This document shows positions 1 through 22,215 of a DNA stretch of 24,000 nucleotides, piece by piece. A program made the translations under genes and the position numbers. The DNA is taken from contig JADMIJ010000012.1 of assembly GCA_015478655.1 (NCBI GenBank), positions 25,947 to 49,946 of the forward strand, given 5' to 3'. How positions within the stretch are numbered: position 1 is the first letter of the stretch; each line of letters starts with the position of its first letter. The stretch comes from Acidimicrobiales bacterium (GTDB lineage: Bacteria; Actinomycetota; Acidimicrobiia; Acidimicrobiales; RAAP-2). The notes beneath the pieces were generated by a model that worked only from the letters and a program-made list of their open reading frames with translations, was not told the origin of the DNA and made no database searches.

Positions 1-176
1 CCCACCCCGTCGGAGTGACATGCTCCCAAGGGCACTCGTTCTTCCTCTCGGCGGCCGTCCACACGATTCACCGCGACGGTACGGTGACGCCAAGCGTCGT
101 CTGCTCCGATGCCGCCAGTGGATGTCCCTTCCACGAGTGGATACTGCTCAAGGGTTGGTCGAGTGAATGGTCCTGA
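1..176 (+). CDS. 3' fragment of a small Cys/His-containing phage-type protein, truncated by the window edge
   Basis: Frame 3 is open from the window edge to TGA at 174-176. It reads ...CSQGHSFFLSAAVHTIHRDGTVTPSVVCSDAASGCPFHEWILLKGWSSEWS, with mostly G/C third positions. Its end overlaps the ATG at 167 of the next ORF. It is absent from the ORF track because it has no start in the window. Any DUF6527-like resemblance is from memory only. Confidence 0.45.
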   Translation, partial: HPVGVTCSQGHSFFLSAAVHTIHRDGTVTPSVVCSDAASGCPFHEWILLKGWSSEWS

Positions 177-487
177 AGCGCGCCGACCTCGTGGGCTTTT
201 CGACCTCGGCGGGAGAGCCCACGCACGGGGGCCGCGCCGCCCTCGTCGACGCGCGCCCGGCCACCGAGTCCCCCCGCCCAGCCCTCGGCGATGACTACCC
301 GGACGCGAAGCGGTGCCCCGCGGTCGTCCGCCTGTCACCCCAATATCCGGCCGAGTCCCGGGAGCGCCGCATACGGATCCGCTGCAAGCGGCGGCGAGGC
401 CACGCGGGCCGCACGCACGTCGGGCGGATTGAGCCGTGGGACCTGCCGGGGGTCGGCGTGACGGTCCTCGTGCGCTGGGTCGCGTAG
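167..487 (+). CDS. hypothetical protein (106 aa)
   Basis: ATG ORF with very high G/C at third positions. It overlaps the stop of the upstream fragment and is convergent with the minus-strand gene ending at 495. No recognisable motif. Confidence 0.45.
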   Translation: MVLKRADLVGFSTSAGEPTHGGRAALVDARPATESPRPALGDDYPDAKRCPAVVRLSPQYPAESRERRIRIRCKRRRGHAGRTHVGRIEPWDLPGVGVTVLVRWVA

Positions 488-494
488 TCCGGGC

Positions 495-698
495 CTACTC
501 GGCCGGGGGATCCCGAGGCGTCTCGACCACGACGTCGGCGAAGTCGGAGACGGGGACCCGGCGGCGTAGCGGGAACTGGCCCAGCATCGCGGCCAGGATG
601 CTCGGGGGCAGCGAGATGGAGGTGCCGGCCGGGGCCGTGTTCGGATTCCCAGCGCCGGGCCCGAGCTTGCGGATCTCCTCGCGGTGTTTTCTGCCCAT
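495..698 (-). CDS. small hypothetical protein (67 aa), possibly ribbon-helix-helix-like
   Basis: ATG at 698, 13 nt after the stop of the 282-aa gene. G/C-rich third positions. The segment TSISLPPSILAAMLGQF resembles an RHH beta-strand/helix, but weakly. Confidence 0.4.
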   Translation of the reverse strand: MGRKHREEIRKLGPGAGNPNTAPAGTSISLPPSILAAMLGQFPLRRRVPVSDFADVVVETPRDPPAE

Positions 699-711
699 CG
701 ACGGCAGCGGC

Positions 712-1560
712 TCAGGCGGCGATCTCGGCGGCCATCACGAGGAAGCCGTAGGTCGCGTCCACGTCCGCCGAGGCGACCACCTTGACGCTGTCGGTCGCCT
801 TGAGGCGCACGTACTGGGGCCAGGTGATGTAGGAGCCGCCCAGCGCATGCGACGGCTGGGAGTGCGAGTACCCGCCGGTCGACTGCGTGGCGCCGAGCGC
901 CGCCGCGTGCGACGCGAGGACGAGGCCGTCGGAGGAACGGCTGATCTCCCCCGTGTAGGCCTTGTCGGCCTTGATGAAGGCGGAGCAGACGAGCCACTCC
1001 TCCCCGTCGGGAACGGGGTTGGAGGTGAGCTCGAAGCCCGTCGATTTCTTGACGCTATCCGTGAACCGTACCTCCGCCGCGTCGGGGCCCCGCCGGAGGC
1101 GGAGCGTGATCTCGGCCGAGGAACCGACCGCCAGGCTCCCCCCGTACTGCGCCTGGATCGACGGGGTGACGGGGATCGGCTGCGTCCACGCGGTCCACCG
1201 TTCGACGGGACTCCCGGCCGGGGGGCTCGACGTCGGCCCGCCGCCGCCGTAGATGGTCCCCGTGCGGCCGGCGCTGACGCCGGCGTTGACGAGGCCGTCG
1301 AGGTTCGGCGTCCACGCCTCCGGGATCGCCTGGTTGATGACCTTGTCGTAGACGAAGGAGCCCTGCTTCCAGGGGACGGCCACCGGGACGGTGTCGACGA
1401 TCTCCGCGGACTCGAGGTAGTAGAGCCTCCCCGCCGGTAGCATGGGGAAGAGGTAGTCGTCGGGGACGCCCTTGCCCCCGTATCCGTGCGTGGCGGTCCC
1501 GTGCCACAGGTAGCTCTCCGCGATCAGGCTCGCCTCCGGGGTGTCGAGATTCGACGACAT
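712..1560 (-). CDS. hypothetical beta-rich protein (282 aa)
   Basis: ATG at 1560 is preceded by GAGGAG 5 nt upstream. The peptide is clean, non-repetitive and rich in G/S/T/V. No catalytic motif recognised. Confidence 0.6.
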   Translation of the reverse strand: MSSNLDTPEASLIAESYLWHGTATHGYGGKGVPDDYLFPMLPAGRLYYLESAEIVDTVPVAVPWKQGSFVYDKVINQAIPEAWTPNLDGLVNAGVSAGRTGTIYGGGGPTSSPPAGSPVERWTAWTQPIPVTPSIQAQYGGSLAVGSSAEITLRLRRGPDAAEVRFTDSVKKSTGFELTSNPVPDGEEWLVCSAFIKADKAYTGEISRSSDGLVLASHAAALGATQSTGGYSHSQPSHALGGSYITWPQYVRLKATDSVKVVASADVDATYGFLVMAAEIAA

Positions 1561-1609
1561 GCGGCTCCTCGGGGGAGCAAAGACGACCGCGTACTTAGAG
1601 GGGCGGGGC

Positions 1610-1900
1610 TCACAGGGGCTTGTGCGTCAGCACAAGGGCGAGGAGCCCGAGGCCGGCCCCGACGTAGTACATCGTGAGGTCCAGGACCCCTCCCCACACG
1701 GTCGCTCCCTGCTCCGTCCGGAGGTCGAGCCAAAACTCCTTCCAGACCTCGAACGCGAAGAGGCCGCCGTAGGCGACGCCGACGGCGTAGAGGCTGCCGG
1801 GGAAGTACGCCGAAAGTAGGTAGAATAGGTAGGCGCCGATCAACGCGTGGACCATCTCGGCGGTGATGAGACCGAGTTGGCCCGGTGTGAGCTTCGCCAT
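1610..1900 (-). CDS. small integral membrane protein (96 aa, about 3 hydrophobic segments)
   Basis: ATG at 1900 lies 1 nt after the TAG (1902-1904) of the UbiA-like gene. Hydrophobic stretches include ALIGAYLFYLLSAYF, AVGVAYGGLFAF and YYVGAGLGLLALVL. Confidence 0.6.
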   Translation of the reverse strand: MAKLTPGQLGLITAEMVHALIGAYLFYLLSAYFPGSLYAVGVAYGGLFAFEVWKEFWLDLRTEQGATVWGGVLDLTMYYVGAGLGLLALVLTHKPL

Positions 1901-1901
1901 C

Positions 1902-3068
1902 CTAGACCCCCGGGGCCCACGCGGAGCCTGTCGACCAGAGCGCGCGGTTTAGCACGGTGAACCACAGGACCGGGAGGACGATGAAGGCGACCCACAGCCA
2001 CGGCCAGAGGGCCGGGACGAGGGCGAGCACGAGCAGCAGGTAGCTCGTCGCCTCGCCCAGGCCCATGATCCGCACCCGGCGCGGCCGGTCGAACGGGCCG
2101 GGGCGGAGCAGGTGGAGGGCGTAGAACGAGAACACGATGTAGGACGCCCACCCCACCACGATCCCCCACGGCGGTCCGGCCACGGCCCACGCGACGACGC
2201 CGAGCGCGAGGGCCTTGCCCCCGGCGAGCCCGTACGCGAACAGCGAGGCCCGCACGCCGGGGAACAGCCAGTCGGCCGTCAGGCCGGCGCCGCTCTCCGT
2301 CACCGTCACCACGGCGCCCCCCTCCCGGGCCGCCTTGAGGAGCCCCGCGAGGACCGGCACCGGCGGCTCGATCCTCGCGCCGAGGCGGCGGAGGATGTTC
2401 CCCTCGTTCGCCTGGGCCAGCTCCTTCGTCTCGCCCGCGACGGCGATCTGGAACGCCGTCATGGCGAAGGCGTAGACCACGACCGCCCACACGAGCACGC
2501 CTGGGGCCCTGCCCCACGCGAGCGCGGACGCGAGGAAGGCCAGCGCGAAGGCGCCCGAGATCTCGAGGACCGCGAGGGGCTTGTTCCGCTTCCCGAGGAA
2601 GTTGTACGCGTGGCCGAGGAGGATGTACCCGGCGAACGGGGCCAGCGCGACCCAGGCACGGGAGACACCCACCAGCGAGATCATCAGTACGATTCCCGCG
2701 ATTTGTAGTGCCGCGACGAGCGTCCATCCCGAGCGGAGGGAGACCCGGCCGGCCACCACGGGGTGGTCGGCCTTCGCCGGGTCGAGCCGGTCGTACGCGA
2801 TGTCGGTGAGGGAGTTCTCCCCGAACCCCGCGAAGTGGCAGAGCACGCCCAGCAGGGCAAAGACCGGAAGGGTCCACAGCGGCGCCCCGCCGACCCACGC
2901 CGCGAGGGGGAACCCGGCCCCCTCGACGGCGGCGGTCTGGGCGCGGAAGAGGCGGAGCGCGTCCCGCGGGCCGACGGTCACGGCCTCCCCCGCCGTCGCA
3001 GGAGCCCCCGCAGCCCGAGCGGCGTGTGGGGCCGCGTCCCCCGGGGGTGCACCCCGCCGCACACGCAC
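1902..3068 (-). CDS. UbiA-superfamily polyprenyltransferase-like membrane protein
   Basis: The first Asp-rich motif NSLTDIAYD (NxxxDxxxD) at 2790-2816 is followed by HPVVAGRVS. A degenerate second motif GETKELAQANEGNILRRLG is present. The protein is polytopic and hydrophobic throughout. The start is uncertain: GTG at 3068 or GTG at 2981. Confidence 0.7.
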   Translation of the reverse strand: MRVRRGAPPGDAAPHAARAAGAPATAGEAVTVGPRDALRLFRAQTAAVEGAGFPLAAWVGGAPLWTLPVFALLGVLCHFAGFGENSLTDIAYDRLDPAKADHPVVAGRVSLRSGWTLVAALQIAGIVLMISLVGVSRAWVALAPFAGYILLGHAYNFLGKRNKPLAVLEISGAFALAFLASALAWGRAPGVLVWAVVVYAFAMTAFQIAVAGETKELAQANEGNILRRLGARIEPPVPVLAGLLKAAREGGAVVTVTESGAGLTADWLFPGVRASLFAYGLAGGKALALGVVAWAVAGPPWGIVVGWASYIVFSFYALHLLRPGPFDRPRRVRIMGLGEATSYLLLVLALVPALWPWLWVAFIVLPVLWFTVLNRALWSTGSAWAPGV

Positions 3069-3126
3069 AGGAACCCGAGGGGCCCGGCCGTCTCGCGGAG
3101 CTTCGGGAGCCGCACGACGGCGGGCA

Positions 3127-3588
3127 TCAGGCCGGGCCCCCGCCGCCGCCGTCGGCGACCCGCGACACCTCGACCACGACGCCGGGGTCGCCGTAGTCCT
3201 TCGACGCCGTGAGCCGGACGACCTGGGAGTCGTCCATGAACACCACGCCGGAAAGTGCGTCCAAAACCGCTCGTACGAGTTTGTCCACGTCGGGCTTCCG
3301 GTCCGGCCAGATCCTGACCGCCCGCTTCTTCTTCCCCCTCCCCACCGTGGTCGGCCGGCTCCGCGGCTGGGGCAGGCGGAAGGCGAGCGCCACGGAGACC
3401 GGGCCGTCCCACACCGGCGTCGGGGCGTGTGGCTGCGCGGCCGACGCGACCGCGCCGCGCCAGTCGCGGAGCGGCCCCGACGACCGGTTGAAGAGGTGGG
3501 CCCGGCCCCCGGCCATGCCGACCTTCAGCGCGCCCTGCGGAGCGGGAAAACCTCGGACCTCAAAGCGGATCGCGCCGTCGTCGGTCAC
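3127..3588 (-). CDS. rusA: RusA-family Holliday junction resolvase
   Basis: GTG start with GGAG about 9 nt upstream. Carries the diagnostic C-terminal motif RKPDVDKLVRAVLDALSGVVFMDDSQVV. Confidence 0.85.
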   Translation of the reverse strand: MTDDGAIRFEVRGFPAPQGALKVGMAGGRAHLFNRSSGPLRDWRGAVASAAQPHAPTPVWDGPVSVALAFRLPQPRSRPTTVGRGKKKRAVRIWPDRKPDVDKLVRAVLDALSGVVFMDDSQVVRLTASKDYGDPGVVVEVSRVADGGGGGPA

Positions 3589-3606
3589 GCCCTGCGCTCC
3601 GGGTGT

Positions 3607-3624
3607 GAAAGCGGTGTCGCTTTC
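3607..3624. terminator. 7-bp stem-loop in the radical-SAM/RusA spacer
   Basis: gaaagcg-gtgt-cgctttc is a perfect inverted repeat. It lies in the only sizeable gap (3589-3709) of this operon. No U-tract follows, so its function is uncertain. Confidence 0.3.
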
Positions 3625-3709
3625 GGAAACGGTGCTCTAAACCATAAGGACAGCGGACGGGAACCACCGTCTCGGGTAGGACCACCGACCCTGTCCGCTC
3701 GGAAATCGC

Positions 3710-4792
3710 TCACGGCGCCTCGCCGACCGGGTGGCGTTCGAGGTACGCCTCGAACGTGTGGTTCCGGAAACTCGCCGGTCCCCGGTTGACGTACCGGGCG
3801 AAACGGTTCAGCCACGGGTCGTCGGTCCGCATGTTGTCCCGCATGACGAACGGGTGGACCCCGAACTCGCCCCACAGGACGTCGAACCGGAGCCTGACCT
3901 CGTCGTGGCACCGGCCGCACGAGTGCCCCCCGTCCGCATAGCCGCACGGATCGCCCGTCGGGTGCCGCCCGCCCTTGGGCGGGTGCCCCGACAGGATGTA
4001 ACAGGTGATCTCCTTCGGGTCGAACCCGGCCCGCAGAAGGCGGGGGACGGCCCTCCTCACCTGCGGCTCGATCCCGATGTAGTCCCATGCGATGTAGAGT
4101 TTCCGGTTGTCGAACTTCAGACTCCACGGCTTGTGGTCGGCGAGGATGCCGGCGAGCTCCTCGCCGTGGTCCTCCCCCTTCGGAGGACCCGCCAGTATCC
4201 GGGCGTCGTAGCCCTGCGTGATAGAGTACCTCCGTCCGGAGTCGCGGAACCATCCGATGACGTCACGCTGCAGCGCCGGGGGATGCGCGGCGAACTCGTT
4301 GTCGAGGAGGAGCACTTTCGAGAGGCCGGACGGGACCCAGTCCCGCGGATGGCGGAACGGGTACCGGGACATGGCCCCCTCCTTCCGGGACACCAGACAG
4401 AAGTCGCACGCGCGGATACAGCCCCGCTGGCAGAACCCGATCGCGCGGTCGTCGCCGTAGAGGTCGTAGTCCGGCAGGGTCGCGTCGACATCGGCGGGGA
4501 GCGTGGACCACGCCCCGGCGGGCTTTCCCCAGTCGACCCCGCTCCCGCCCAGACGGACGTCCGGGCAGGCCCGGGAGAGACCACGGGCGACCGCCTCCGC
4601 CGTGGGCCGGTTCCACGAGAACACGCACGATACGTAGGCCCGGTCCGGCTTCCCCGCGTCGAGCGGAACCTCCGGCCGGGCCATGCCGCAGGACAGCGCG
4701 ACGGAGTCGCCCCGGACCCTGTGCCATGCGGCGAGCTGCATCAGCGCGAGGTTCGGGATCGTCGAGTCGTGGTCGACTAGCAGGACCCTCAC
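3710..4792 (-). CDS. radical SAM enzyme with an N-terminal Rossmann/B12-binding-like domain (COG1032-like)
   Basis: CIRACDFC (CxxxCxxC) is encoded at 4397-4420. The N-terminus [23 protein letters not shown] resembles class-B/COG1032 radical SAM proteins. The GTG start (4790-4792) overlaps the TGA (4789-4791) of the upstream MTase. The 859-aa ORF in the track is a chimera; only its 3' 1083 nt look like coding sequence. Confidence 0.8.
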
Positions 4793-6702
4793 GGCGCCCC
4801 CGCGAACTCCGTCAGCCGGGCCTGCGCCGGGTGGCTCGCCGTCCGGAGCTGTGCCACGTGCGCGGGCGAGACCACGCCCGCCTCGGCGATCCGTTGTTCG
4901 ATGAGGGGGACGTACGCCGGGTTCAGCTCGATCCCGATGGACCGGCGGCCGAGGCGCTTCGCCACCGCGAGCGTAGTCCCGCTCCCGGCGAACGGGTCCA
5001 AAACCACGCAGGGGACCGTCGGCCGGCACGCGCACCCGGGCCACGACACGTCGGCCTCCACGATCTTGTACGTCTCCTCGACGGCCTTCCCGGCCCCGCC
5101 GTAGGCCTCGACCTCCTCGTCGGTCGCGTCGGCGGCCGCGCCCCCGAGGCCGGACTTCTGGCCGAGGATGCCCTTCTTCGCGTCGCGGACCCGGATGTTC
5201 ATCGTGGAGACGCGCTTCCGGACCGTCCTGTGCGTCCACGACGCCCCGCACTTGTCGCAAGGGTCCTTGCTGCACCCGCAGGTCGGCGTCCAGCCGACGG
5301 TGATCTTCTCGAACATGCCGGCGAGGATGCGGCGCTTGACGTCCGACGCGTTCTCCGCGCCGGTCCCCTCGTAGTCCTTGACCGCCCGCCCCGAGTACTC
5401 GCCGTCGGCGTCGCCGCCCGAGGCGACCTGCCACTCCCGCTGGGGATTGCCGAGCCCGACGACCCGCTCCCACGGCGCGCCGCACTCCGGGCAGGCGCCA
5501 CGCTCGGACGTCCCGGCGAGGAGGCATATCTCGGCGAGGCGCTCGGGGAACACCGCGAAGTGGGCGCCCCTGTACCCCTTCGTCGGGATCGTCCAGACGG
5601 AGCGGAGGTTCCGGCCCGAGCCGGCCTCCAGCGGCAGGTCGGTCGCCTCCCGGAAGCTCGGGTTCTGCTTGACGCCCGACCCGGACCCGGCGTGCTTGCG
5701 CGCCATGTTCTCGAGGGCCCGCCGGGCCGAGCGGCTGGGGTTCGTCCCGCGGGAGTAGTCCTTCGGGCCGCCGGTCTGCTCCCACAGGGACCTCTGCGAC
5801 AGGCGCAGGTGCGTGCCCTCGGACAGGGGCTCCCGCACCGCGTCGGCGTCGTAGAAGTACCTCGGCGACCTCGTCAGGTGGAACACGTACGAGTGGGCAC
5901 GGGTCGTGCGGTCCTTCGTCGACTCCGGCATGGGGTTCTGGTGGTTCCAGATGTTGTCCTGCCGGAGGTACCACCCGTCGCCCTGGAGGGCCAGGGCGAC
6001 GCGGAACGGTATCAGCGCGAGGTCCTTCTCCTTCAGCTCGTCGTTGCGCTTGTCCATCAGCCCGGCCTGCTCGTGCCCGGTCAGGTCCCGGTTGCTCAGC
6101 GTCGAGGCGGCCCACCGCCTCGGCCCGGTCAGGCCGGCCGGGTGGGTCGAGTACGTGTCCCCGATCTCGAGGAAGAACACCCCGTCCTCGCGGAGCACGC
6201 GGCGGACCTCCCGGCACACCGAGACGATGTGCGCCACGTAGAGGGAGGGTGTCGGCTCCAGGCCGAGGGAGCCGAACCACGCGTCGCACCTGGAGCAGAA
6301 CCTCCCGCCGATCGCCTCGTAGTTCCCCGCCGATGGCAGGTTGCCCTCGTCGGCCTCCTTACGGGCACGGCGTGGCGGGGTCGCCACCCACTCGTGGGCG
6401 CATGGGGGGTCACCGCCCCAGAGCACCTCCTGGCCGGGTATCTTCCCCGTCCCCCCGCACCACTGGCAGTCGGGGTCTGGCTCCTTCTTCCGGACGGCCC
6501 CGTCGGCCCTCCTCGGCGGGGGGTGCTCCTCGTCGCCCCGGACGTAGTCCTGCGAGCAGACACAGAGGTCGTACCTCCTCAGTCCCCAGAAGGCCGGACT
6601 CGTCGCGACGCACTGGACCGATCCGCCGGGGAGCTTCCGCAACCAGTCGAGGACGTCGCCCCGCAGGACCAGCGGCTCGGGGCCGGTCGGGAGGTCGGTC
6701 AC
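4789..6702 (-). CDS. DNA methyltransferase, N4-cytosine/N6-adenine family (PF01555-like, beta class) with Cys-rich insertions
   Basis: Motif IV-like TSPAFW occurs near the N-terminus. [38 protein letters not shown] and [10 protein letters not shown] are present, as is motif [30 protein letters not shown] near the C-terminus. Zn-ribbon-like CPECG and CDKCG inserts are present. The GTG start (6700-6702) overlaps the ASCH stop. Confidence 0.85.
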
Positions 6703-7009
6703 CGGACCACCTCGAACCGGACGACGGTCACCTCGAGGAACGGGTCCCACTCCCCGTGAAGGAGCTGCCACTGGTCCATGAAGTCCTCGACGGACCGGCA
6801 CCCCTCCCGGCGGGCGGCGGCGTCGGTGATCCCGTGCAGCGGCTCGCGGCGCACCGAGAGGACCCGGACCTTCGGGTCGCCCGGGCGAACCGGCTGGTCC
6901 TCGTGCGGTAGACGCCGCCGACGCGGACGTGCGGCCGCTTCCAGACCCGGCGGGTCTCGGTCTTCCGCCCCCGGACGATCTTGAGGAGGTTCTGCTGGGT
7001 GAAGATCAC
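6699..7009 (-). pseudogene. ASCH-domain protein whose reading frame is broken once (-1/+2) near 6879-6900
   Basis: The N-terminal half (GTG at 7009) reads [34 protein letters not shown]. The C-terminal half is in another frame: [59 protein letters not shown], ending at TGA 6699-6701. Each frame reads as low-complexity junk beyond the junction. Confidence 0.65.
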
Positions 7010-8941: not shown

Positions 8942-8963
8942 CCCGGGGCCCGAAGGCCCCGGG
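8942..8963. repeat. perfect 9-bp all-GC hairpin with a tetraloop (cccggggcc cgaa ggccccggg)
   Basis: Inverted repeat read directly. On minus-strand RNA the loop is UUCG. It is preceded by ggggctt. Confidence 0.6.
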
Positions 8964-9153: not shown

Positions 9154-9173
9154 CCCCCCTACAAGTAGGGGGG
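9154..9173. terminator. perfect 9-bp-arm hairpin (cccccctac aa gtagggggg) about 20 nt past the end of the replication operon
   Basis: Inverted repeat read directly. It starts 20 nt downstream (minus sense) of the TGA at 9193-9195. No U-tract follows, so it would be a hairpin-only terminator type if it terminates at all. Confidence 0.4.
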
Positions 9174-9683: not shown

Positions 9684-9862
9684 GGCTTCCTCCATGCCGC
9701 GAGCAGCCGCTCGGCGAACAACCGGGTCGCCGACGACCGCGGAAGCTCCTTGCGCGCCCCGGCCGCGAGGTGGAAGAGGTCCTGCCGCATCTCGGCGATC
9801 AGGGCGTCGTGATCCAGGCAGGCGTTGCACCCGTCGCAGTTGACTAGTCCGCACGACGTCAA
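9680..9862 (-). CDS. small Cys-rich protein (60 aa)
   Basis: The TTG start (9860-9862) overlaps the helicase TGA (9859-9861). Peptide: LTSCGLVNCDGCNACLDHDALIAEMRQDLF... Confidence 0.45.
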   Translation of the reverse strand: MTSCGLVNCDGCNACLDHDALIAEMRQDLFHLAAGARKELPRSSATRLFAERLLAAWRKP

Positions 9863-11508
9863 CGCACCCTCCCCACGTCGGCCCGCGCCCGGAACCACCC
9901 GGGCAGCGACGCCCAGTACCGTCGCAGGAGCCGGTCCGCGTTCGCGTCGAGGATGTAGGTCTCCCCGCGGTCGTCCCTCGAGCGCATCACCCGGCCGCAG
10001 GCCTGGAGCATGTCGGTAATCGCCTGCTCCTCGTACCACTGGCGGCCCCCGGGCCGGTCCCGGCGGCGGACCACCCACGGGTCGCCGAGGTTCGGGTACG
10101 GCGCCTTGATCACGACCTGCCACCGCGCCTGGTCCCCGACGAGGTCGAGGCCCTCCGACATCGCCACGCCGACGAAGACCGAGTCCCGCCGCCCGTCGCC
10201 CCTCCACTCCTCGAGGCTCTCGTTCCGGTCGCCGCGGTCGTGGAACACGAGCCGCGCGGAGAGCCCGGCGGGGGCGTGCGCCTCGACGTGCTCCCGCACC
10301 ATGTACGAGTTGCAGTGGATGATCCCGCGCTCCGCCGGGTGCAGGCGGGCGATGCGGGCCAGCTCGGAGACGACCCGCGGCAGCTCCGAGGCCATCCGCT
10401 CCCTGTTGAGGCGGACGGTTCCCGTGAGGCGGACCGGCGCGTTCGCGGGCGGGAACGTGTCCGGGACGGTGACGGTGGCCCACTCCCCCGGGAGGCCGAG
10501 GTACCTCACGAGGCCCGGGATCCCGAAGAAGGTCGCCGAGCCGAGGAGGATGTGGTCGAACTGGTCCCAGACCCTGGCCACGAACGGGCCCACCTCGAGC
10601 GGGCGCCAGAGGTGCCGTTTCATCGCCGCCTCCCATGTGTGGACCCACTCGACGTCGTCCCGGAAGAGGTTCTCCATGAGCCGTTCGCACCGGCGGACCA
10701 ACGCCGCCTGCCGCTTGACCTCCTTCATCTCCGACCCGCTGTGCGGGTCCGCCGCCGCGGTCATGGCCTCGAGCCCTCGGCGCTGTGTCTCAGTGTAGTC
10801 CGGCAGGTGTTCCCGGAGGAAGTCCAGCGGGTCCTCCGCCAGTCCGATCCCGTCGAAGTCGAACTCCGGGAGCGTCCTCTCCCCGACCATCATCGCGTAG
10901 AACTGGACCAGGTCCTCCGGGAGCCCGTGGGCCTCGTCGACGACGAGGAGTGATCGGGGGTCCCATCCGTAGCCCGGGAGGATGCCGATGAACATGTAGG
11001 CCAGGGTAGTGACGGTGGTCCGGGCAATCTGGGCCGCCGCCTTGGCGGTGTAGTAGGGGCACTCCGGGAGCTTGGGACATCCATTGACGCATTGGTCGGT
11101 GCAGCTCCGGGGGTCCTCCTCGGTATGGTCGTGTTTTCCCCTCGGCCAGTACTTGATGAACGTGCAGGGCGCCCCGTCGGCGGTCGCCTCTGGGTCCCCG
11201 CCGGGCAACCCCCGGACGTGCGGGCACGGGTAGTTGTCCCGGCCGTAGAGCGTGCGGGCCCCGAGCCCATCGAACTTCCCGCCGGGCGCGGTGTCCCGTC
11301 CGTACTGGTCGACGAGGAGGGTCTGCGGGGTCGTGACGTAGGTCGGGCCGGTCCCCCGGGCGGCGAGGAGATGGATCAGGCTCTTGCCCGATCCTACGGG
11401 CGCGTCGAGGAAGACGGTCTTCGTGCCCCCGGCGAAGCGGTCGAGGACGCGCCGGATCGTCTCCTCCTGGTTCTCGCGTAGGACGATGTGCGGGGGCGGA
11501 CGGATCAT
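9859..11508 (-). CDS. XPD/Rad3/DinG-like superfamily-2 helicase with a Cys cluster (putative Fe-S domain)
   Basis: Walker A APVGSGKS is at 11380-11394 and DEAH (VVDEAHGLP) at 10927-10938. A Cys cluster lies between them (YPCP, APCTF, SCTDQCVNGCPKLPECPYY; 11059-11226). The ATG at 11508 overlaps the AbrB TGA (ATGA). Confidence 0.8.
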   Translation of the reverse strand: MIRPPPHIVLRENQEETIRRVLDRFAGGTKTVFLDAPVGSGKSLIHLLAARGTGPTYVTTPQTLLVDQYGRDTAPGGKFDGLGARTLYGRDNYPCPHVRGLPGGDPEATADGAPCTFIKYWPRGKHDHTEEDPRSCTDQCVNGCPKLPECPYYTAKAAAQIARTTVTTLAYMFIGILPGYGWDPRSLLVVDEAHGLPEDLVQFYAMMVGERTLPEFDFDGIGLAEDPLDFLREHLPDYTETQRRGLEAMTAAADPHSGSEMKEVKRQAALVRRCERLMENLFRDDVEWVHTWEAAMKRHLWRPLEVGPFVARVWDQFDHILLGSATFFGIPGLVRYLGLPGEWATVTVPDTFPPANAPVRLTGTVRLNRERMASELPRVVSELARIARLHPAERGIIHCNSYMVREHVEAHAPAGLSARLVFHDRGDRNESLEEWRGDGRRDSVFVGVAMSEGLDLVGDQARWQVVIKAPYPNLGDPWVVRRRDRPGGRQWYEEQAITDMLQACGRVMRSRDDRGETYILDANADRLLRRYWASLPGWFRARADVGRVR

Positions 11509-11762
11509 CGCTTCCTCGCCCTCGGTGTGTCCCACCGCGCGCCCCGTACCCCGACTATCCGCAGGACCAGTACGTCGCCCTCTGCGATGCCCAGGGTCTC
11601 CAGCATCAGATGGTCGACGGTAATCTGGCCCCTCTTCCTCAGTTTCGCCGCGAACTCGATCTGCCGCTCGTCGGGGAGCATCTTGAAACTCTGGTGGCCT
11701 GCCATGCGGGACCCCGTAACACTCTCGGATATATTCTGATTTCCTCGCACGGGCTGGGTCAC
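11505..11762 (-). CDS. AbrB/SpoVT/MazE-type DNA-binding protein (85 aa)
   Basis: KLRKRGQITVDHLMLETLGIAEGDVLVLRIV fits the swapped-hairpin AbrB fold signature. The GTG start (11760-11762) overlaps the primase TGA. Confidence 0.6.
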   Translation of the reverse strand: MTQPVRGNQNISESVTGSRMAGHQSFKMLPDERQIEFAAKLRKRGQITVDHLMLETLGIAEGDVLVLRIVGVRGARWDTPRARKR

Positions 11763-14557
11763 TCGCGCCCCCGGAACGGTAGCCGCTCCGGCCAGCCCCC
11801 GGGCCGGTAGTGCTCCCGGCCGTCCTCGCCGACGTACGACTTGCCCAGGCCCATCAAGCGGCCGAAGGCCCCGCTCACCGCCCCGGCCGAGTGGGCGGTG
11901 CGAAGACGGGTGCGTGTCACGTCTCGGTCCCAGACCCCCGGGCCCTGCGCGTCGAGGATCGGGATCAGGTCCGCGTACGCCGCGTCGATTTCCAGGTCCG
12001 GAGGGGCCGCCACCACTCCCCCCTCATCGCTCCGTTCCAGCGCGGCCCTGGCCCCGTCCGCCCGTGTAGCGCGCCCGGCGAAAACGTCCTCCGGGTCCGG
12101 CGTCGTCCGGCCGGCCCGGCCGGGCTCGAGCGCTAGCTTTTCGTTGTTCCTCCCTGATGCTGTTCCCGAGTTTTTCGGGGAGGCGTTTTGACCCGGCCGG
12201 GCCGGCCGGGCTCCGTCAGTGGACCCCCCCGGACCGTCCGGATCGCCGTCGGTCCGTTGACCCCCCCCTTCGGCGTCGAGCCGTTTCTGTCCGTCGCTGG
12301 TCCCGGGACCCTGTAGCCCGGACTGCGACGAACCCCCGTACCGGAACCTCAGCCCCCTCCACGCTTTCTCGCGTCGGCCCTCCACCTGCGGGCGGTGGGG
12401 GCGTATGCCGGGGACGATCCGCACGATCTCCGCCCCGACCTCCTGTTTGGTCATCGCCTCGGGCACTCCGTTGGCCTCGCAGAACTCCGCGTACCGCGCG
12501 TAGAACTCGTCCTTCAGGACCCACTCGTCGGGGTCGCGCACCACCTCCTCCTGGACGAACCACTCGAGGGACGCGGACCGCTTGAGCCAGTCCTCCGTCG
12601 CCCGCCGCACCGTCTCGCCCGGTGCGAACCGGCCCCGTTCCCATAGACGGTGCCGCCCCTCCAGGGCCCAGTTGAGGATCCCCGGGAGGGACTTGCAGAG
12701 GCGGGGAACGAGGAACGAGTCCCGCCGCTCAAGCGGGATGAAGACCGGCCACTCGATCACGAGGACCCGGCGCTTGAACGCCCCGTCGATCCTCTTGACG
12801 GCGGGGAGACGCTGGCCGCTGAACACCAGCTTGGCGCCGTTGACGAACTTGAACGGCTGCTTGTTCTTCTTCTCGGCCCGGACGTAGTCCCCGCCGGTGA
12901 GACTCTTGAGCTTGTCCGTCTTGGTGAGCGTCTGGAGCGGGATGTCGGCCGCGATGTTGGCGAGCTTCCCGTAGAGCTCCGCCACCGAGAACCGGTTCTC
13001 GGAGATCGTCTGCGGCGGCTCGTGGGAGCAGCTCGCGGTGCCTAGGAGTTCCGCGAGTACCGACAGGAACGTCGACTTGCCGTTCGCCCCCTCGCCGACG
13101 TGGAAGAACATCGTCTGCAGCTCGTTCCCCGGCGAGAGGCAGTAGCCGACCATCTCCTGGATGAGCGTGCGGTTCTCCGGCTCCGGCTGGACCTCGGCGA
13201 GCCACGCGAGGAACGGGGCCGGGTCGGCGTCATTGTCGTACGCCACGGGGATGCGGTACGTGAAGCGGTCCTTCTCGGGATCGTGGTCACGGCGTTCCCC
13301 CTTGCCGAGATCGTACACGCCGTTGACCAGGTTCACGAGGCCGGGCCGGTTGAACGTCTCCCGGTGGACGAAGGTGGCCGCCCGCACGGCGTTGACCACC
13401 TCGTTCCGGTGGTTCTTCTTCGCCGAGGCCGACCTGATTTGGAATTGCCGCTCCACCCACGACTCGATGAACGCCTCGGCGAACCCGTTGTAGACCCCCC
13501 TCTCGTACCGGAGGATCTCCCGGGTGTCGGGGAGGGAGCAGAAGTGCTCCTCCTGCAACACCCGCCATACCGCGCCGGCGTGGACCCACGCGCCCTCGGC
13601 GGACCACATCGGAGGGGGCTCGCCGATCAACGGACCGGTGGCGGGGAAGCCCGGCAGGACGTCCGATGGTGGTGTGGTCGGGCTCTCCACCCGCCGATCG
13701 GCCGGCGCTGATGGGCCGGGCGGGGTACCCGCACTTCCTGCCTCGGGTGTGTGAACCGGGTCGGCGCCGGTGTCCGAGCGGGTGGAGTTGGATGGGGGCG
13801 CGGGCCGGCCGAACTTCCCGAGCGCGGACCGGACCGCAGTCTCGATGTCCCTGTCCCGGGACGGCCACCGGTCGTCGTCACTGGCCGCGTACATGGCCGG
13901 CTTGACGATGGCGAGGGCCTGCGCCTCGGTGATCCCCGGAGTGCGGGAGACGACCGAGGCGGCCAACGAGATCAGGTAGTCGTGCCGGCGGCCGTGCGGG
14001 ATCCGGCCGTCGGTGTCGGTCCCGAACTGGCGGGGCGCGGCCGGCGCCGGAGCGGCCCGGAGGAGCCACCCCGGCAGCATCGGCGGTCTCGGCCCGCCGA
14101 CCAGCGGGACGACCCACTCGTACGTGTTCCCCGAGGCGTGCGGGCTCGGCGGGGCCACGACGTACGAGCCGTCGCCCTGGAGGTCGAGCCCCGGCCGGAA
14201 GCCGTGGGCCGGCGGCACGTTCCCGCCGGGGTGCGCGAAGTACCGGTGCTCCCCGCCTCCGCCCGTCTTCGCGACGGGCCCGCGCGGGAGCAGCCCGTGC
14301 TCCTCCAGCAGGGCCTCGAGGCTGTCGTCGCCGCCGTGGCGCGGGTCGACGTCGAGGACCACGAGGCCGGACACCGACCCCATCGGGACGCCGATCCCCG
14401 CGCCCGGATTCTCGGCCCACCACTTGTGGATCGTGTCCGCGTCCCGGGTCGAGTCCTTGAAACCGTGGGGCGTGAGCGGGGTCTTGTCGGCCTTCACGGG
14501 GAACACGGGGAGGCCCGACTTAGCATAGCAGAGTGCGGCCTCGAGGAGGGTGGTCAT
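11759..14557 (-). CDS. bifunctional primase-polymerase (prim-pol) fused to a D5/P4-type SF3 helicase (932 aa)
   Basis: The N-terminus GLPVFPV...LVVLDVDPRHGG...GGGEHRYF...GSYVVAPPS is a prim-pol signature. Walker A VGEGANGKSTF is at 13070-13096, with downstream D5_C-like sequence. The C-terminal roughly 200 aa are a low-complexity linker followed by a small domain. A single frame runs throughout. Confidence 0.85.
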   Translation of the reverse strand: MTTLLEAALCYAKSGLPVFPVKADKTPLTPHGFKDSTRDADTIHKWWAENPGAGIGVPMGSVSGLVVLDVDPRHGGDDSLEALLEEHGLLPRGPVAKTGGGGEHRYFAHPGGNVPPAHGFRPGLDLQGDGSYVVAPPSPHASGNTYEWVVPLVGGPRPPMLPGWLLRAAPAPAAPRQFGTDTDGRIPHGRRHDYLISLAASVVSRTPGITEAQALAIVKPAMYAASDDDRWPSRDRDIETAVRSALGKFGRPAPPSNSTRSDTGADPVHTPEAGSAGTPPGPSAPADRRVESPTTPPSDVLPGFPATGPLIGEPPPMWSAEGAWVHAGAVWRVLQEEHFCSLPDTREILRYERGVYNGFAEAFIESWVERQFQIRSASAKKNHRNEVVNAVRAATFVHRETFNRPGLVNLVNGVYDLGKGERRDHDPEKDRFTYRIPVAYDNDADPAPFLAWLAEVQPEPENRTLIQEMVGYCLSPGNELQTMFFHVGEGANGKSTFLSVLAELLGTASCSHEPPQTISENRFSVAELYGKLANIAADIPLQTLTKTDKLKSLTGGDYVRAEKKNKQPFKFVNGAKLVFSGQRLPAVKRIDGAFKRRVLVIEWPVFIPLERRDSFLVPRLCKSLPGILNWALEGRHRLWERGRFAPGETVRRATEDWLKRSASLEWFVQEEVVRDPDEWVLKDEFYARYAEFCEANGVPEAMTKQEVGAEIVRIVPGIRPHRPQVEGRREKAWRGLRFRYGGSSQSGLQGPGTSDGQKRLDAEGGGQRTDGDPDGPGGSTDGARPARPGQNASPKNSGTASGRNNEKLALEPGRAGRTTPDPEDVFAGRATRADGARAALERSDEGGVVAAPPDLEIDAAYADLIPILDAQGPGVWDRDVTRTRLRTAHSAGAVSGAFGRLMGLGKSYVGEDGREHYRPGGWPERLPFRGRE

Positions 14558-14892
14558 TGGGGGACCCCGGCTTCCTTCTTGGCGGCCGCGCGGTCACGGG
14601 CCCTATAGCGGGCGGTTTCCATCAGACGCTCGGCGAAGAAGTCGAACCGGGCACCAAGCAAGAGCATGAACTCGCGGTACTCGTCCGCACTCATCGTACC
14701 CTTCACGATGTTGCACCGGGAACAGCAGACGGTTCGATTCTCTGGGTTGTCGTCGCCACCGCGGGCACGTGATGTCATGTGGTCCCCCGAGGGGACCCAC
14801 CGCCGATCCTCGCCAGACATGATGTGTCCGCAATAGGGACACGGCTTTCCGACGAACTCGGGGTACTTGCGTACGGTGACGGACGTGCTCAT
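14554..14892 (-). CDS. HNH endonuclease (112 aa)
   Basis: CPYCGHIM...SGDHMTSRARGGDDNPENRTVCCSRCNIVKG is the HNH/Zn-finger signature. Its TGA overlaps the primase ATG (ATGA at 14554-14557). Confidence 0.75.
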   Translation of the reverse strand: MSTSVTVRKYPEFVGKPCPYCGHIMSGEDRRWVPSGDHMTSRARGGDDNPENRTVCCSRCNIVKGTMSADEYREFMLLLGARFDFFAERLMETARYRARDRAAAKKEAGVPQ

Positions 14893-15322
14893 GCGCGCTC
14901 GCAGGGGACGCCGGCGGCGGCCGGGACGCGGCGACCGCACGAGGGGCAGCGGACGTCACTCGTCGAGGGACACACTCATCATCGCCTCTGGTCGGGGGGG
15001 CGACGCCATGAGCGGAGTCCCTAATGAACATGCGGTTCCAGTTTCCATCGGAAACGGTGGGGGGTCGACGGGGATGGCAGGGCGGGCGGTCCCCCGACCT
15101 TCCGGAAGCGAGATCGCTACCGTCCCGCCGTGCCGGGTACGTATATTGGACAGGGGTCTATATAGCTTCCGGAACCATCGCCCCGTCGCAGTGGTCCAGT
15201 CTGTGCGGGGATGATCCCGGCCCGGTCCTCTCCTCCTCCCTCGCCCCCCCGCCCGGACCGGGGGACCCCGTATCACGACCCCCCCGGCCGGGTTGATATA
15301 CACGAACGAGTTTGTCTTGTCC
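14893..15322. promoter_or_regulatory. divergent control region between the replication operon and the plus-strand operon
   Basis: A 430-bp region without convincing coding sequence. It contains the palindrome cttccggaag (15099-15108) and a second ttccggaa (15167-15174). These flank A/T islands gtatatt (15141-15147) and ctatatag (15158-15165). It also contains the hairpin gtttcc-atc-ggaaac (15041-15055), a pyrimidine tract (about 15227-15255) flanked by cccggtcc/ggaccggg, and ttgatatac (15293-15301) about 25 nt before the ATG at 15323. Confidence 0.55.
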
Positions 15323-15485: not shown

Positions 15486-16436
15486 ATGGCGGACCGGGAC
15501 GAGGCGACGGGCCGGCAGAAGCAGTTCCTCCTGGACCTCGGGTGCACGGAGGCACCGGTCGGCCTGACCCGCGCCCAGGCCTCGGCGTGGATATCCGAGC
15601 TCCGCGACCACCAGGCGATCGTGGCGACCGGCGCGAAGGCGACCGCGAGGGCCGACCTCTTCACCGTCCCCCCGGGCGGGTCACCATCACCGTCGCCGGC
15701 GGGCGGACAGGCGGGCGACTCCCCGTCCCGCCCGGGGGGGGGACCGGCCGCGTCCGCTTCTTCTTCCGCGGCCCCGTCGCCCGCCCCGCAACCCGCCGGC
15801 GCCCCCGCGCCGCTCGCCGCGGCCGCCGCGTCCGTCCAGGAGCCGCCCGGGTTCAGGACCGGCACGCAGGTGCTGGCCGAGCGGCAGGCCGAGGCGGAGC
15901 TCGTCGTCCGGTCGCGGGAGTCCTGGGAGCGGGCGGCCGGCCTGACCGCCGAGCAGATCACGATCCTGCGCGACGCGGGGCGCTTCCCGAAGGACGCCCG
16001 GGAGAACGAGATCCGCTTCGGGCTCGCCTTCGCGCACCGGCTCGGTCTCGACGTGTTCTCGGGGCAGGTGAAGTACATCCGGTTCGAGGAGAACGGCCCG
16101 ATGTCGCCGTTCATCGGCATCGATGGGATGGCGGCGCTCGCTAACAAGACGGGGCAGCACGACGGCTGGGAGATGAAGACCGAGGTCGACAAGGAGGGGA
16201 GGCCGGCCCGGTGCACGGTGACGGTGCACCGCAAGGACCAGAAGCACCCCGTGGTCGTCGCGCTCGAGTACGCCGAGGCGGTCAAGTACCGCAAGGACGG
16301 GGCGGTGACCCGGTCGTGGCGGGAGGGCCCGAAGCGGATGCTCGAGAAGGCGACCCGCGCGGCGGCTCTCCGGGCCGCGTTCCCCGAGACGCTGAGCGGG
16401 GTCTTTGAGACGAGCGAGGTCGCCGTTGAGGAGTGA
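15486..16436 (+). CDS. recT: RecT-family single-strand annealing recombinase with an N-terminal extension
   Basis: The C-terminal roughly 170 aa read LGLDVFSGQVKYIRF...PFIGIDGMAALANKTGQHDGWE...RSWREGPKRMLEKATRAAALRAAFPE, which is RecT-like. The N-terminus has a short helical module (QKQFLLDLG...LTRAQASAWISELR) followed by a roughly 90-aa P/A/S/G linker. Confidence 0.75.
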   Translation: MADRDEATGRQKQFLLDLGCTEAPVGLTRAQASAWISELRDHQAIVATGAKATARADLFTVPPGGSPSPSPAGGQAGDSPSRPGGGPAASASSSAAPSPAPQPAGAPAPLAAAAASVQEPPGFRTGTQVLAERQAEAELVVRSRESWERAAGLTAEQITILRDAGRFPKDARENEIRFGLAFAHRLGLDVFSGQVKYIRFEENGPMSPFIGIDGMAALANKTGQHDGWEMKTEVDKEGRPARCTVTVHRKDQKHPVVVALEYAEAVKYRKDGAVTRSWREGPKRMLEKATRAAALRAAFPETLSGVFETSEVAVEE

Positions 16437-20212: not shown

Positions 20213-20565
20213 TGTGCGACCGGTGCAGGTCCGAGAGGCCGTGCGGCCGGTGCGCCTGCCGGAGGACGATCCGCCCGAAGGACTCGAGCGCGCGGAGGCT
20301 CGGCTATGGGATCTGTGTGACCTGCGGCCACTACGTCAGCCGGCGACCGCCTTCCAGAGGCGGTTCGACCGCCACAGTATCCGGAGCGGACGGAGACCGC
20401 GGGCCCGCAGGTGGCGCAGCGCCTCCCGCCGCATCGCGTAGGGCGAGAACCGGCCGGGCGGCAGACGTATCTCGACCAGGGCGTCCATCGTGGCCCGGAC
20501 CTCGTCGGTCGTCATCCCGAGCAGGACCTGCTTCCAACGGTAGCGCAGGCGCATCTCGCGGATGA
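20212..20565 (+). CDS. possible small Zn-ribbon protein with an uncertain 3' end
   Basis: ATG at 20212 shares one nt with the previous TGA. The N-terminus MCDRCRSERPCGRCACRRTIRPKDSSARRLGYGICVTCGHY is plausible. Past about 20336 the frame is antisense to the GGR-like gene and reads as low complexity. Confidence 0.3.
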   Translation: MCDRCRSERPCGRCACRRTIRPKDSSARRLGYGICVTCGHYVSRRPPSRGGSTATVSGADGDRGPAGGAAPPAASRRARTGRAADVSRPGRPSWPGPRRSSSRAGPASNGSAGASRG

Positions 20566-22171: not shown

Positions 22172-22215
22172 CGCCAACCATAGGCTTATTCCCCCAAATG
22201 TAATTGACCGTTCCG
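22172..22215. promoter_or_regulatory. 44-bp divergent intergenic spacer with two A/T boxes
   Basis: cttatt (22185-22190) is centred about 28 nt before the plus-strand ATG at 22216. aaatgtaatt (22196-22205) is centred about 29 nt before the minus-strand ATG at 22171. There is no Shine-Dalgarno sequence on either side. Confidence 0.4.

Follow-up and report, generated by a model that had tools for sequence, protein, structure and literature searches.

An element-borne UbiA-superfamily protein with a variant second motif that recurs with a GGR-family flavoprotein and a small membrane protein

Enzymes of the UbiA superfamily are known as chromosomal housekeeping or secondary-metabolite enzymes, and in the known UbiA/GGR pairs, ChlG/ChlP, DGGGPS/GGR and MenA/MenJ, a prenyl chain is attached and then saturated. 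Here, we analyze a UbiA-type gene, denoted UbiA-1, in a 24,000-nt stretch of DNA from an Acidimicrobiales bacterium (assembly GCA_015478655.1, contig JADMIJ010000012.1, positions 25,947 to 49,946 of the forward strand; hereafter, the window, whose numbering is used throughout), together with a gene for a small membrane protein, F1, and a gene for a GGR-family flavoprotein in the same window. To judge from its sequence, UbiA-1 is probably an active member of an undescribed, often element-borne clade of UbiA-superfamily intramembrane transferases. The reading that we favor, with about even odds, is that UbiA-1, F1 and the flavoprotein make up a module, carried by the element, for the synthesis and saturation of a membrane compound with an isoprenoid anchor. 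To all appearances, there is no earlier description of the clade, of its signature (a variant second motif, a tenth transmembrane (TM) helix and a C-terminal P-x-V), of its frequent residence on mobile elements or of its GGR and F1 partners.

The assignment of UbiA-1 to the UbiA superfamily, in which our confidence is high, is already known from automated annotation, which names a UbiA family prenyltransferase: UbiA-1 is 100% identical to a protein with the label 'UbiA family prenyltransferase' in an NCBI metagenome-assembled genome (MAG). The same identity had been proposed in a first-pass annotation of the window made from the sequence alone, and it is borne out by a significant PF01040 match and by a full-length predicted fold that is that of a UbiA enzyme. 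PF01040 matches UbiA-1 with 40.9 bits (E = 1.9e-10; gathering score 34.2), the alignment being limited to profile positions 9–160 of 250, that is, the N-terminal 60%. The AlphaFold model, built with 29 family members, has a pLDDT of 91.9, a pTM of 0.89 and ten long TM helices. In a Foldseek search of the PDB with this model, the top matches were only UbiA-fold enzymes, all with a probability of 1.0, namely, AfUbiA (4tq3/4tq4), DGGGP synthase (6m31/7bpu), ApUbiA (4od4) and the Mycobacterium tuberculosis DPPRS (8j8j), on which UbiA-1 superposes over approximately 320–340 columns with 15–17% identity and a target-normalised TM-score of 0.64–0.74; soluble trans-prenyl synthases rank far lower. At the sequence level, the profile of the UbiA-1 family matches the same four proteins (4od4, 6m31, 8j8j and 4tq3), and its best PDB match is ApUbiA, deposited as a 4-hydroxybenzoate octaprenyltransferase. 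In the UbiA fold as described, eight or nine TM helices are arranged as two pseudo-symmetric four-helix bundles that enclose a central cavity (PMC4106721), and the UbiA-1 model is predicted to have this arrangement plus one additional C-terminal helix. The homologs of UbiA-1 are UbiA-family proteins and not holins or transporters, the alternative raised with the first-pass annotation.

According to the helices of the model, the loops on the side of the two motifs contain 12 Lys and Arg residues and all 12 Asp and Glu residues, compared with 2 Lys and Arg residues in the loops on the opposite side. Because 12 of the 14 loop Lys and Arg residues are on the motif side, the positive-inside rule predicts that both motif regions face the cytoplasm, as in solved UbiA enzymes and as the proposed topology implied.

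The UbiA family is defined by the motifs N-D-x2-D-x3-D and D-x3-D (Huang et al., PMC4106721); in AfUbiA, the ligands of the two Mg2+ ions are N68 and D72 from the first motif and D198 and D202 from the second (PMC4106721). UbiA-1 contains the following features:

2790–2816, minus strand: first Asp-rich motif, N56-S-L-T-D60-I-A-Y-D64, at the cytoplasmic end of TM2
2397–2435, minus strand: variant second motif, G183-E-T-K186-E187-L-A-Q-A-N-E193-G-N195, at the cytoplasmic end of TM6
2256–2384, minus strand: variable insertion of approximately 40 residues (about residues 200–242) in the cytoplasmic cap loop between TM6 and TM7, with a model pLDDT of 56–80
1905–1949, minus strand: C-terminal cytoplasmic tail after the tenth TM helix, N345-R-x-x-W349 ... 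P357-G-V359-COOH

The first motif had been read from the sequence as NSLTDIAYD followed by HPVVAGRVS, and both the positions and the canonical N56-x3-D60-x3-D64 residues hold, with Ser in the second place, where the definition of the family has Asp. Among 143 representatives of the clade (P0001 and 142 retrieved relatives, clustered at 50% identity), N56, D60 and D64 are 98–99% conserved, and they are invariant or nearly so in the close family. The second motif had been described as diverged and rich in Glu (GETKELAQANEGN), which is what we find. We aligned UbiA-1 by profile–profile comparison (hhalign) with a canonical UbiA paralog (KDIGDREAD) from related elements as the reference; K186-E187-L-A-Q190 falls on K-D-I-G-D, and thus the DxxxD pair is lost, leaving UbiA-1 with no D-x-x-x-D at the cytoplasmic end of TM6. 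Instead, the clade consensus is G-x-x-K-(D/E)-x5-6-E-x-N, in which G183 and K186 are 99% conserved and N195 is 87% conserved among the 143 representatives, and the acidic residue at position 187 and E193 are also kept.

Elsewhere in the protein, R13, T16, H49, N56, D60, D64, D67, K70, P74 and G78, as well as Y126, N127, K131, G183, K186, G201, E310, N345, W349, P357 and V359, are 92–99% conserved in this set. Among them are K70, Y126, N127, K131, K186 and E310, polar positions in the lining of the UbiA active site, and since the active-site residues are at least 92% conserved across the 143 representatives, the catalytic site is probably retained. Such conservation is expected of an active enzyme with a signature of its own rather than of a decaying paralog. 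The cytoplasmic tail is comparably constrained (N345 95%, W349 93%, P357 97% and V359 97%; N-(R/K)-x-x-W ... P-x-V in the clade), and the conservation of the very last residue suggests a function for the free C-terminus, for example, in active-site closure or partner docking. The extra helix and the invariant C-terminus together may represent a new way to close the active site. Not all family members have the cap-loop insertion.

UbiA-1 shares with AfUbiA, DGGGPS and ApUbiA its fold, the N-x3-D-x3-D with which TM2 ends on the cytoplasmic side, the basic residue and Pro-containing loop after this motif, and a conserved Tyr/Lys pair where TM4 ends, but differs from them in having (D/E)187...E193-x-N195 in place of the second DxxxD, a tenth TM helix, the C-terminal P-x-V, the variable 40-residue insertion between TM6 and TM7, and carriage on mobile elements. 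The loss of the second DxxxD could also be taken to indicate that UbiA-1 has the UbiA fold but no catalytic activity and instead acts as a scaffold, as a holin-like factor in lysis or, by sequestering a lipid carrier, as an inhibitor. Several of its neighbors are small membrane proteins, and in one related locus (L027), the module lies a few kb after a possible tape measure gene (encoding a 1,564-aa coiled-coil protein); the lysis cassette of tailed phages is often located just after the tail genes. We nevertheless regard a non-catalytic role as very improbable: the near-invariance of the first motif and of the active-site polar residues in 143 divergent representatives is hard to explain without catalysis, no holin or lysis family in PHROGs is matched, and co-inheritance with a flavoenzyme suggests chemistry.

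UbiA-1 belongs to an undescribed clade of at least 203 protein clusters. A word-indexed search recovered 31 clusters with 34–100% identity to UbiA-1, all metagenomic, 2 of which carry the NCBI label 'Acidimicrobiales bacterium'. An exhaustive HMMER search of 1.84 billion representatives with the family profile yielded 203 full-length relatives at E ≤ 1e-30, 474 at E ≤ 1e-10 and 2,118 at E ≤ 1e-3, the last of these sets necessarily including ordinary UbiA enzymes. For UbiA-1, none of the NCBIfam subfamily models (UbiA, MenA, MqnP, CyoE, DGGGPS, DPPRS, ChlG and HPT) reaches its cut-off: the best score is 37.7 bits against 269 for NF009523; further scores are those of TIGR01475 (31.8/180.8), cyoE (29.6/210.3), DPPRS (28.7/207) and ubiA_proteo (16.8/275).

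The search for homologs in phages and plasmids that had been suggested with the first-pass annotation gave a divided result. The catalogued collections were empty: neither the window nor UbiA-1 had a nucleotide or protein match among 50,697 INPHARED phage records and 72,556 PLSDB plasmids; IMG/VR, scanned with family patterns, contained no relative of UbiA-1; BFVD viral structures offered no counterpart beyond giant viruses; and PHROGs and PADLOC contained nothing for UbiA-1, F1 or the 282-aa protein encoded downstream of F1 (p282), nor did PADLOC for the canonical paralog. GTDB representative genomes, searched with a single peptide pattern, yielded no relative, a weak negative. Relatives were found on plasmid- or virus-like metagenomic contigs, and their neighbors were recorded (related loci are designated below by L numbers). 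In the literature, we found no description of a phage-, plasmid- or archaeal-virus-encoded UbiA or GGR, although this negative is weak, given that few subscription journals were covered; a match to 'UbIA-MS' was a likeness of name only and is unrelated to UbiA.

The second enzyme that the first-pass annotation had linked to isoprenoids is encoded in the same window:

20336–21568, minus strand: GGR-family FAD oxidoreductase (TIGR02032, 141.8 bits, E = 3.6e-41), start codon uncertain

Its best equivalogs are archaeal digeranylgeranylglycerophospholipid reductases, and it contains the motifs VVVGAGYAG, GYAWVFP and LGDAGR..P.TGGGI. At residues about 44–50, where classical GGRs have a catalytic Cys-Gly-Gly, the sequence is S-T-S-G, and element-borne relatives have S-T-S-G or S-T-E-G. 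The GGR-like clade comprises 14 clusters, found on the same contigs as UbiA-1, and its next relatives are at most 35% identical. The idea that the element carries two isoprenoid-handling enzymes is supported by related elements: GGR and UbiA-1 genes share a contig in at least 8 elements, among which UbiA identities range from 25% to 78% (the source contig, of 64,641 bp; contigs of 87,468, 85,400, 60,605, 156,496, 71,429 and 119,883 bp; and L033), and L031 has a weaker GGR match on its UbiA-1 contig. In L033, the GGR gene lies 1 kb downstream of UbiA-1 in the same orientation. As in ChlG/ChlP, DGGGPS/GGR and MenA/MenJ, a UbiA-family transferase and a GGR flavoprotein occur together; unlike those pairs, which are encoded in chromosomal pathway loci, both members of the element pair belong to orphan clades, are non-adjacent in the window and reside on plasmid- or virus-like replicons. 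The NCBI start of the GGR-like protein (403 aa) appears to cut into the beta-1 strand of the Rossmann fold.

The third putative component is the small membrane partner noted previously, which starts 1 nt past the UbiA-1 stop codon:

1610–1900, minus strand: F1, small membrane protein of 96 aa with three predicted helices, its ATG lying 1 nt past the UbiA-1 stop

This linkage is kept in at least 11 related loci, and the three helices are predicted with low confidence (AlphaFold pLDDT of 64). A hidden Markov model of F1 placed the family within approximately 3.5 kb downstream of UbiA-1 in L005, L006/7, L009/10/11, L013, L014/25/26, L015 and L018, upstream of UbiA-1 in L027 and beside the GGR gene in L001; it is absent from the subclade L003/4/17/19 and from archaeal-type loci. 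Helix 1 begins with a conserved His, and helices 2 and 3 are joined by a conserved K-E-x3-D-x3-E loop (residues 54–63). One further Asp, one Tyr and a C-terminal H-(K/R)-P-L are also conserved, and the conservation of charges in so tiny a membrane protein suggests a binding or catalytic role rather than that of a holin. No family was found for F1 in Pfam, NCBIfam, PHROG or PADLOC, the lone weak match being phrog_28549, of unknown function (E = 0.071). A holin was rejected, given that no PHROG or Pfam holin family is matched and the conserved polar loop argues otherwise. A C50-carotenoid module (CrtEb/LyeJ with CrtYe/Yf) was rejected as well: F1 has no lycopene-cyclase-domain match at E ≤ 1 in Pfam or NCBIfam, and neither crtB nor crtI was found in the window. 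The spacing of K-E-x3-D-x3-E resembles an Asp-rich motif, next to a UbiA protein without its second DxxxD. It is conceivable, from these sequences, that the F1 loop complements the second motif of UbiA-1 in trans.

If the module is real, UbiA-1 would, as other UbiA enzymes do, ionise a Mg2+-bound diphosphate donor (a prenyl diphosphate or phosphoribosyl diphosphate) in its cytoplasmic cavity and join the donor group to a membrane-embedded acceptor, the product exiting sideways into the bilayer. E187, E193 and N195, perhaps with the C-terminal tail or the acidic loop of F1, would stand in for the second DxxxD. The translationally coupled F1 would be an accessory subunit that presents the substrate, flips the product or provides its acidic loop on the same face of the membrane, and the GGR-family flavoprotein would saturate double bonds of the isoprenoid chain. 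Two candidate products, about equally likely, are a prenylated quinone or other aromatic compound and a polyprenyl-phosphate-linked carrier, in either case partly saturated and made in the host, and the element might benefit through envelope remodeling, exclusion of competitors or support of respiration.

Several observations weigh against such a module. The canonical second DxxxD, whose Asp residues bind the second Mg2+ in AfUbiA (PMC4106721), is absent from the UbiA-1 sequence. Homology does not reveal the donor or the acceptor, because no curated model scores above 38 bits against cut-offs of 180–351. The GGR-like protein falls just under the TIGR02032 cut-off (141.8 against 158.8 bits) and, judging from its sequence, appears to have Ser or Thr at the usual place of the catalytic Cys; the UbiA-1 and GGR genes, 17 kb apart, do not form one operon in the window. 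F1 has no detectable family and a model of low confidence. Finally, the window showed no gene for a polyprenyl synthase, a glycosyltransferase or the quinone pathway.

The carrier-lipid version of the chemistry corresponds to a specific alternative, namely, that UbiA-1 is a polyprenyl-phosphate phosphoribosyl (pentofuranose) transferase like DPPRS and PPPRS that serves surface-glycan modification, with F1 as a small flippase. Its role would then be serotype conversion, receptor masking or superinfection exclusion, by analogy with Gtr or three-component systems. GGR-family enzymes saturate archaeal dolichol carriers, and the mycobacterial DPPRS is paired with a small candidate flippase of the SMR/GtrA type, Rv3789. 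Of all solved structures, DPPRS (Rv3806c, 8j8j) gives the longest alignment with the clade profile (profile positions 21–176), and the alignment of UbiA-1 with NF008978 spans residues 85–223, including the region of the second motif. In PPPRS enzymes, the first motif, N-D-x2-D-x3-D, is essential and the R/E residues of loop IV are dispensable (PMC11127046), which fits an intact first and a relaxed second motif; the likeness of UbiA-1 to these enzymes extends from the UbiA fold to the essential first motif, the non-canonical second region and, in mycobacteria, the associated small membrane protein. A GDP-mannose 4,6-dehydratase gene (TIGR01472, 362 bits) downstream of UbiA-1 in L006/L007 and L017/L019 also agrees with this function. 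However, DPPRS models score only 18–29 bits against cut-offs of 207–234, the UbiA-1 motif begins with N-S and not with N-D, and F1 has no GtrA, SMR or MATE match. Neither the window nor approximately 30 related loci (about 20 kb per locus) yielded a GT-C glycosyltransferase or a phosphatase, and no epimerase partner was found either, so that the UbiA-1 locus does not qualify as a three-component pentofuranose system, which consists of PPPRS, a MATE or SMR/GtrA flippase and a GT-C enzyme (PMC11127046). The likeness to the phage Gtr cassettes (GtrA/GtrB/Gtr*) is conceptual only, consisting in mobile carriage, a membrane lipid carrier and a small polytopic membrane protein; unlike these cassettes, the module has no GT-2 (GtrB), GT-C or GtrA family match. 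On balance, we consider this function unlikely, though about as plausible as the quinone chemistry discussed next.

The pairing of UbiA with GGR mirrors MenA/MenJ, and menaquinone is an isoprenoid quinone common to actinobacteria and the presumed archaeal host groups. UbiA-1 could therefore be a quinone or aromatic prenyltransferase like MenA that works with a MenJ-like reductase, so that the element, in an auxiliary metabolic role, tunes or boosts a partly saturated menaquinone pool of the host. A 'menaquinone-9 beta-reductase' is among the distant matches of the GGR-like protein (31% identity), the MenJ model NF045655 scores 34.7 bits, ApUbiA is the best PDB sequence match as noted above, and the clade member in L029 lies beside UbiE-type methyltransferases. 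In disagreement with these pointers, the MenA, UbiA and MqnP models score far under their cut-offs, no other quinone-pathway gene is present in the window, and both enzymes are orphans, with at most 35% identity to cellular enzymes, and hence are not recently host-derived metabolic genes. In our estimate, the odds are clearly against this reading, to the same extent as for the pentofuranose transfer. Recent derivation from a host MenA or DGGGPS was rejected on the ground that UbiA-1 and GGR are both orphan clades.

The apparent lack of the classical Cys in the GGR-like protein would be compatible with an oxidase or epoxidase function instead of a reductase function, with UbiA-1 acting in a meroterpenoid pathway or as a UbiA-type terpene cyclase and the product being a toxin, signal or pigment. 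There is precedent for both variants: the UbiA-type protein XimB acts together with a proposed epoxidase, XimD, which is an FAD protein containing GGR-family domains (PMC4053376), and UbiA-type terpene synthases have been reported (PMC9835599). Nevertheless, we consider this improbable: the GGR-like protein keeps the GYxWxFP typical of GGRs, there is no chorismate lyase, cyclase, ligase or polyprenyl synthase near UbiA-1, and the neighbors are replication and recombination genes rather than a biosynthetic cluster.

Returning to the UbiA-1, F1 and GGR module, a broader and more tentative version, which we hold to be possible but doubtful, is that distinct UbiA and GGR clades constitute a portable lipid-chemistry module on bacterial and archaeal plasmids and viruses that rewrites isoprenoid membrane compounds of the host, with the three-TM subunit of the bacterial branch possibly supplying the acidic loop in trans. 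If so, the bacterial carriers would be of the actinobacterial type (RusA, RecT and ParB) and the archaeal carriers would be elements with Cdc6/Orc1 and MCM, the compounds rewritten would be carrier lipids, quinones or ether-type lipids, and the element would gain by exclusion, by taking over the host or in forming particles. With a clade this deep (at least 200 clusters) recurring together with a GGR-type reductase on elements whose replication genes are of bacterial and archaeal type, membrane isoprenoid chemistry would have to be counted among the functions manipulated by mobile elements, and UbiA-1 would define a UbiA variant that functions without the canonical second Mg2+-binding motif.

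The mobile-element setting recognized initially is supported by phage- and plasmid-type genes in the window and by a circularly permuted relative. The contigs of most sampled clade members are plasmid- or virus-like, and their replication genes are of either the bacterial or the archaeal type. Close relatives with high GC content are on contigs of 60–156 kb that are full of small open reading frames matching no family and that also carry PrimPol-D5 primase-helicase, ParA/ParB, DNA methylases, Vsr, and HNH and LAGLIDADG endonucleases. Two Logan contigs from different samples, SRR18214667_179171 (L001) and SRR18214510_5091 (L002), share a length of 87,468 bp and, across the 12.7 kb that were compared, 100% identity, but have different breakpoints, so this replicon is inferred to be circular or circularly permuted; it looks like a complete circular element with UbiA-1, F1, GGR, PrimPol-D5, ParB and a C5 methylase. 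The window itself encodes HNH endonucleases, one of which is listed here, and further proteins:

about 3710–4790, minus strand: radical-SAM-like protein, directly downstream of the methylase (phrog_9298, E = 4e-31; no Pfam match)
4789–6801, minus strand: N6/N4 DNA methylase, 670 aa
8348–8917: Vsr
9859–11535: XPD-like helicase
11759–14557: PrimPol-D5
14554–14940, minus strand: HNH/EndoVII-like endonuclease beside the primase
15486–16436: RecT

The radical-SAM-like protein and the N6/N4 methylase may form a DNA-modification pair. Homing-type endonuclease genes are scattered in the elements, including a LAGLIDADG gene directly after UbiA-1 in L025/L026 (11033–11812).

The RusA protein of the window is closest to actinophage RusA proteins (Gordonia, 42% identity over 93%), which supports an actinobacterial host. 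Distant clade members, with 25–32% identity to UbiA-1, occur in three kinds of context. L033 contains Cdc6/Orc1, ParA and DUF7123/DUF7564, and L031 and L032 have faint MCM matches, with an integrase also in L032. In L029/L030 (8436–11023), from a Thermoplasmatota MAG, the surroundings of the clade member look chromosomal, and it immediately follows the genes for a 298-aa protein without known function and for a UbiE-type methyltransferase, the latter hinting at quinone chemistry as the only contextual pointer in that direction. L034, on a contig labelled Euryarchaeota, encodes Vsr, a tandem of UbiA-1 with a second UbiA, ParA and an Evr1/Alr oxidase. Host assignment by binning is unreliable, because related contigs were binned as Acidimicrobiales bacterium (P0001/P0004) and as Euryarchaeota archaeon (P0179/P0196). 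No capsid, portal or terminase gene was found in the available parts of the elements, PHROG scans of large neighbor proteins included. In L027, a gene at 23–4717, approximately 5 kb upstream of the UbiA module, encodes the 1,564-aa coiled-coil protein, which has a pro-kumamolisin activation domain. This protein could be tape-measure-like, which would make the elements tailed viruses.

Within the window, UbiA-1 is the second of four minus-strand genes in a row (RusA, UbiA-1, F1 and p282), the remaining features of which are:

3649–3671, minus strand: terminator-like hairpin upstream of RusA (pattern match only; 3 found against 1.2 expected)
3127–3588, minus strand: RusA-like Holliday junction resolvase, directly upstream of UbiA-1 (PF05866, E = 4e-19; phrog_140, E = 5e-28)
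712–1560, minus strand: p282, 282-aa protein downstream of and adjoining F1

The UbiA-1 open frame covers 1902–3068 (minus strand, 388 aa). The start is likely to be the GTG at 2981, giving a gene at 1902–2981 (minus strand, 359 aa) that agrees with the NCBI call; GGGGGAGG stands upstream of this GTG, and the 29 N-terminal aa that precede it in the open frame are unconserved among homologs. The window has a G+C content of 70.8%, and coding frames are marked by a third-position GC of approximately 0.9 or above, so the values of 0.90–0.96 for UbiA-1 and its neighbors indicate that these frames are coding. As reported before, RusA directly precedes UbiA-1, and 1 base separates the UbiA-1 stop codon (TAG, 1902–1904) from the F1 ATG (1898–1900). 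A pattern scan found no terminator-like hairpin between RusA, UbiA-1, F1 and p282. Given this result and the hairpin upstream of RusA, a possible boundary of a transcription unit, the four genes may form a single transcription unit.

The 282-aa protein placed after the membrane partner is indeed encoded at 712–1560 but is not a conserved neighbor of the UbiA gene, and it was rejected as a member of the module: no homolog is found beside UbiA-1 in other loci, the only homolog being a 45% identical 302-aa protein in L022/L023, near PKD and CarboxypepD_reg proteins. Searches of Pfam, PHROG, the PDB and phage proteins with p282 gave no match.

The canonical paralog used above as the alignment reference, UbiA-2 (PF01040, 86 bits), has NQxxDxxxD and KDIGDREAD (an intact KDxxDxxxD). 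It is absent from the window and lies within 0–3 kb of UbiA-1 in L003 (7213–8118), L006 (1055–1918), L010–12, L016, L027 (7826–8704) and L034 (10999–11925), being in tandem with UbiA-1 in L034 and L032; the two proteins may act in sequence or as a heteromer. The GDP-mannose 4,6-dehydratase gene is 2–3 kb downstream of UbiA-1 (7648–8643 in L006), and its TIGR01472 score is under the cut-off of 415; it hints at surface-glycan chemistry. A Pfam scan of 20 further neighbor proteins left almost all without a match, and several genes near UbiA-1 encode small membrane proteins.

Next to the GGR gene, a divergent gene at 22204–23970 (plus strand) encodes a 588-aa protein that has the same neighbor in L014/L025/L026 (38% identity) and occurs in L003 as well; it has no family except for a weak match to phrog_5824 (unknown function, E = 5.9e-5). 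Rfam and tRNA scans of the window were empty. Two inverted repeats were observed in the intergenic region between Vsr and the helicase, at 9154–9173 and 8945–8960, namely, a GC-rich perfect palindrome, CCCCCCTAC-AA-GTAGGGGGG, and a hairpin, GGGGCC-CGAA-GGCCCC, and an AT-rich element, GTATATTGG...CTATATAG, is at 15141–15165, where a divergent region precedes the RecT operon. These elements may be terminators, promoters or an origin.

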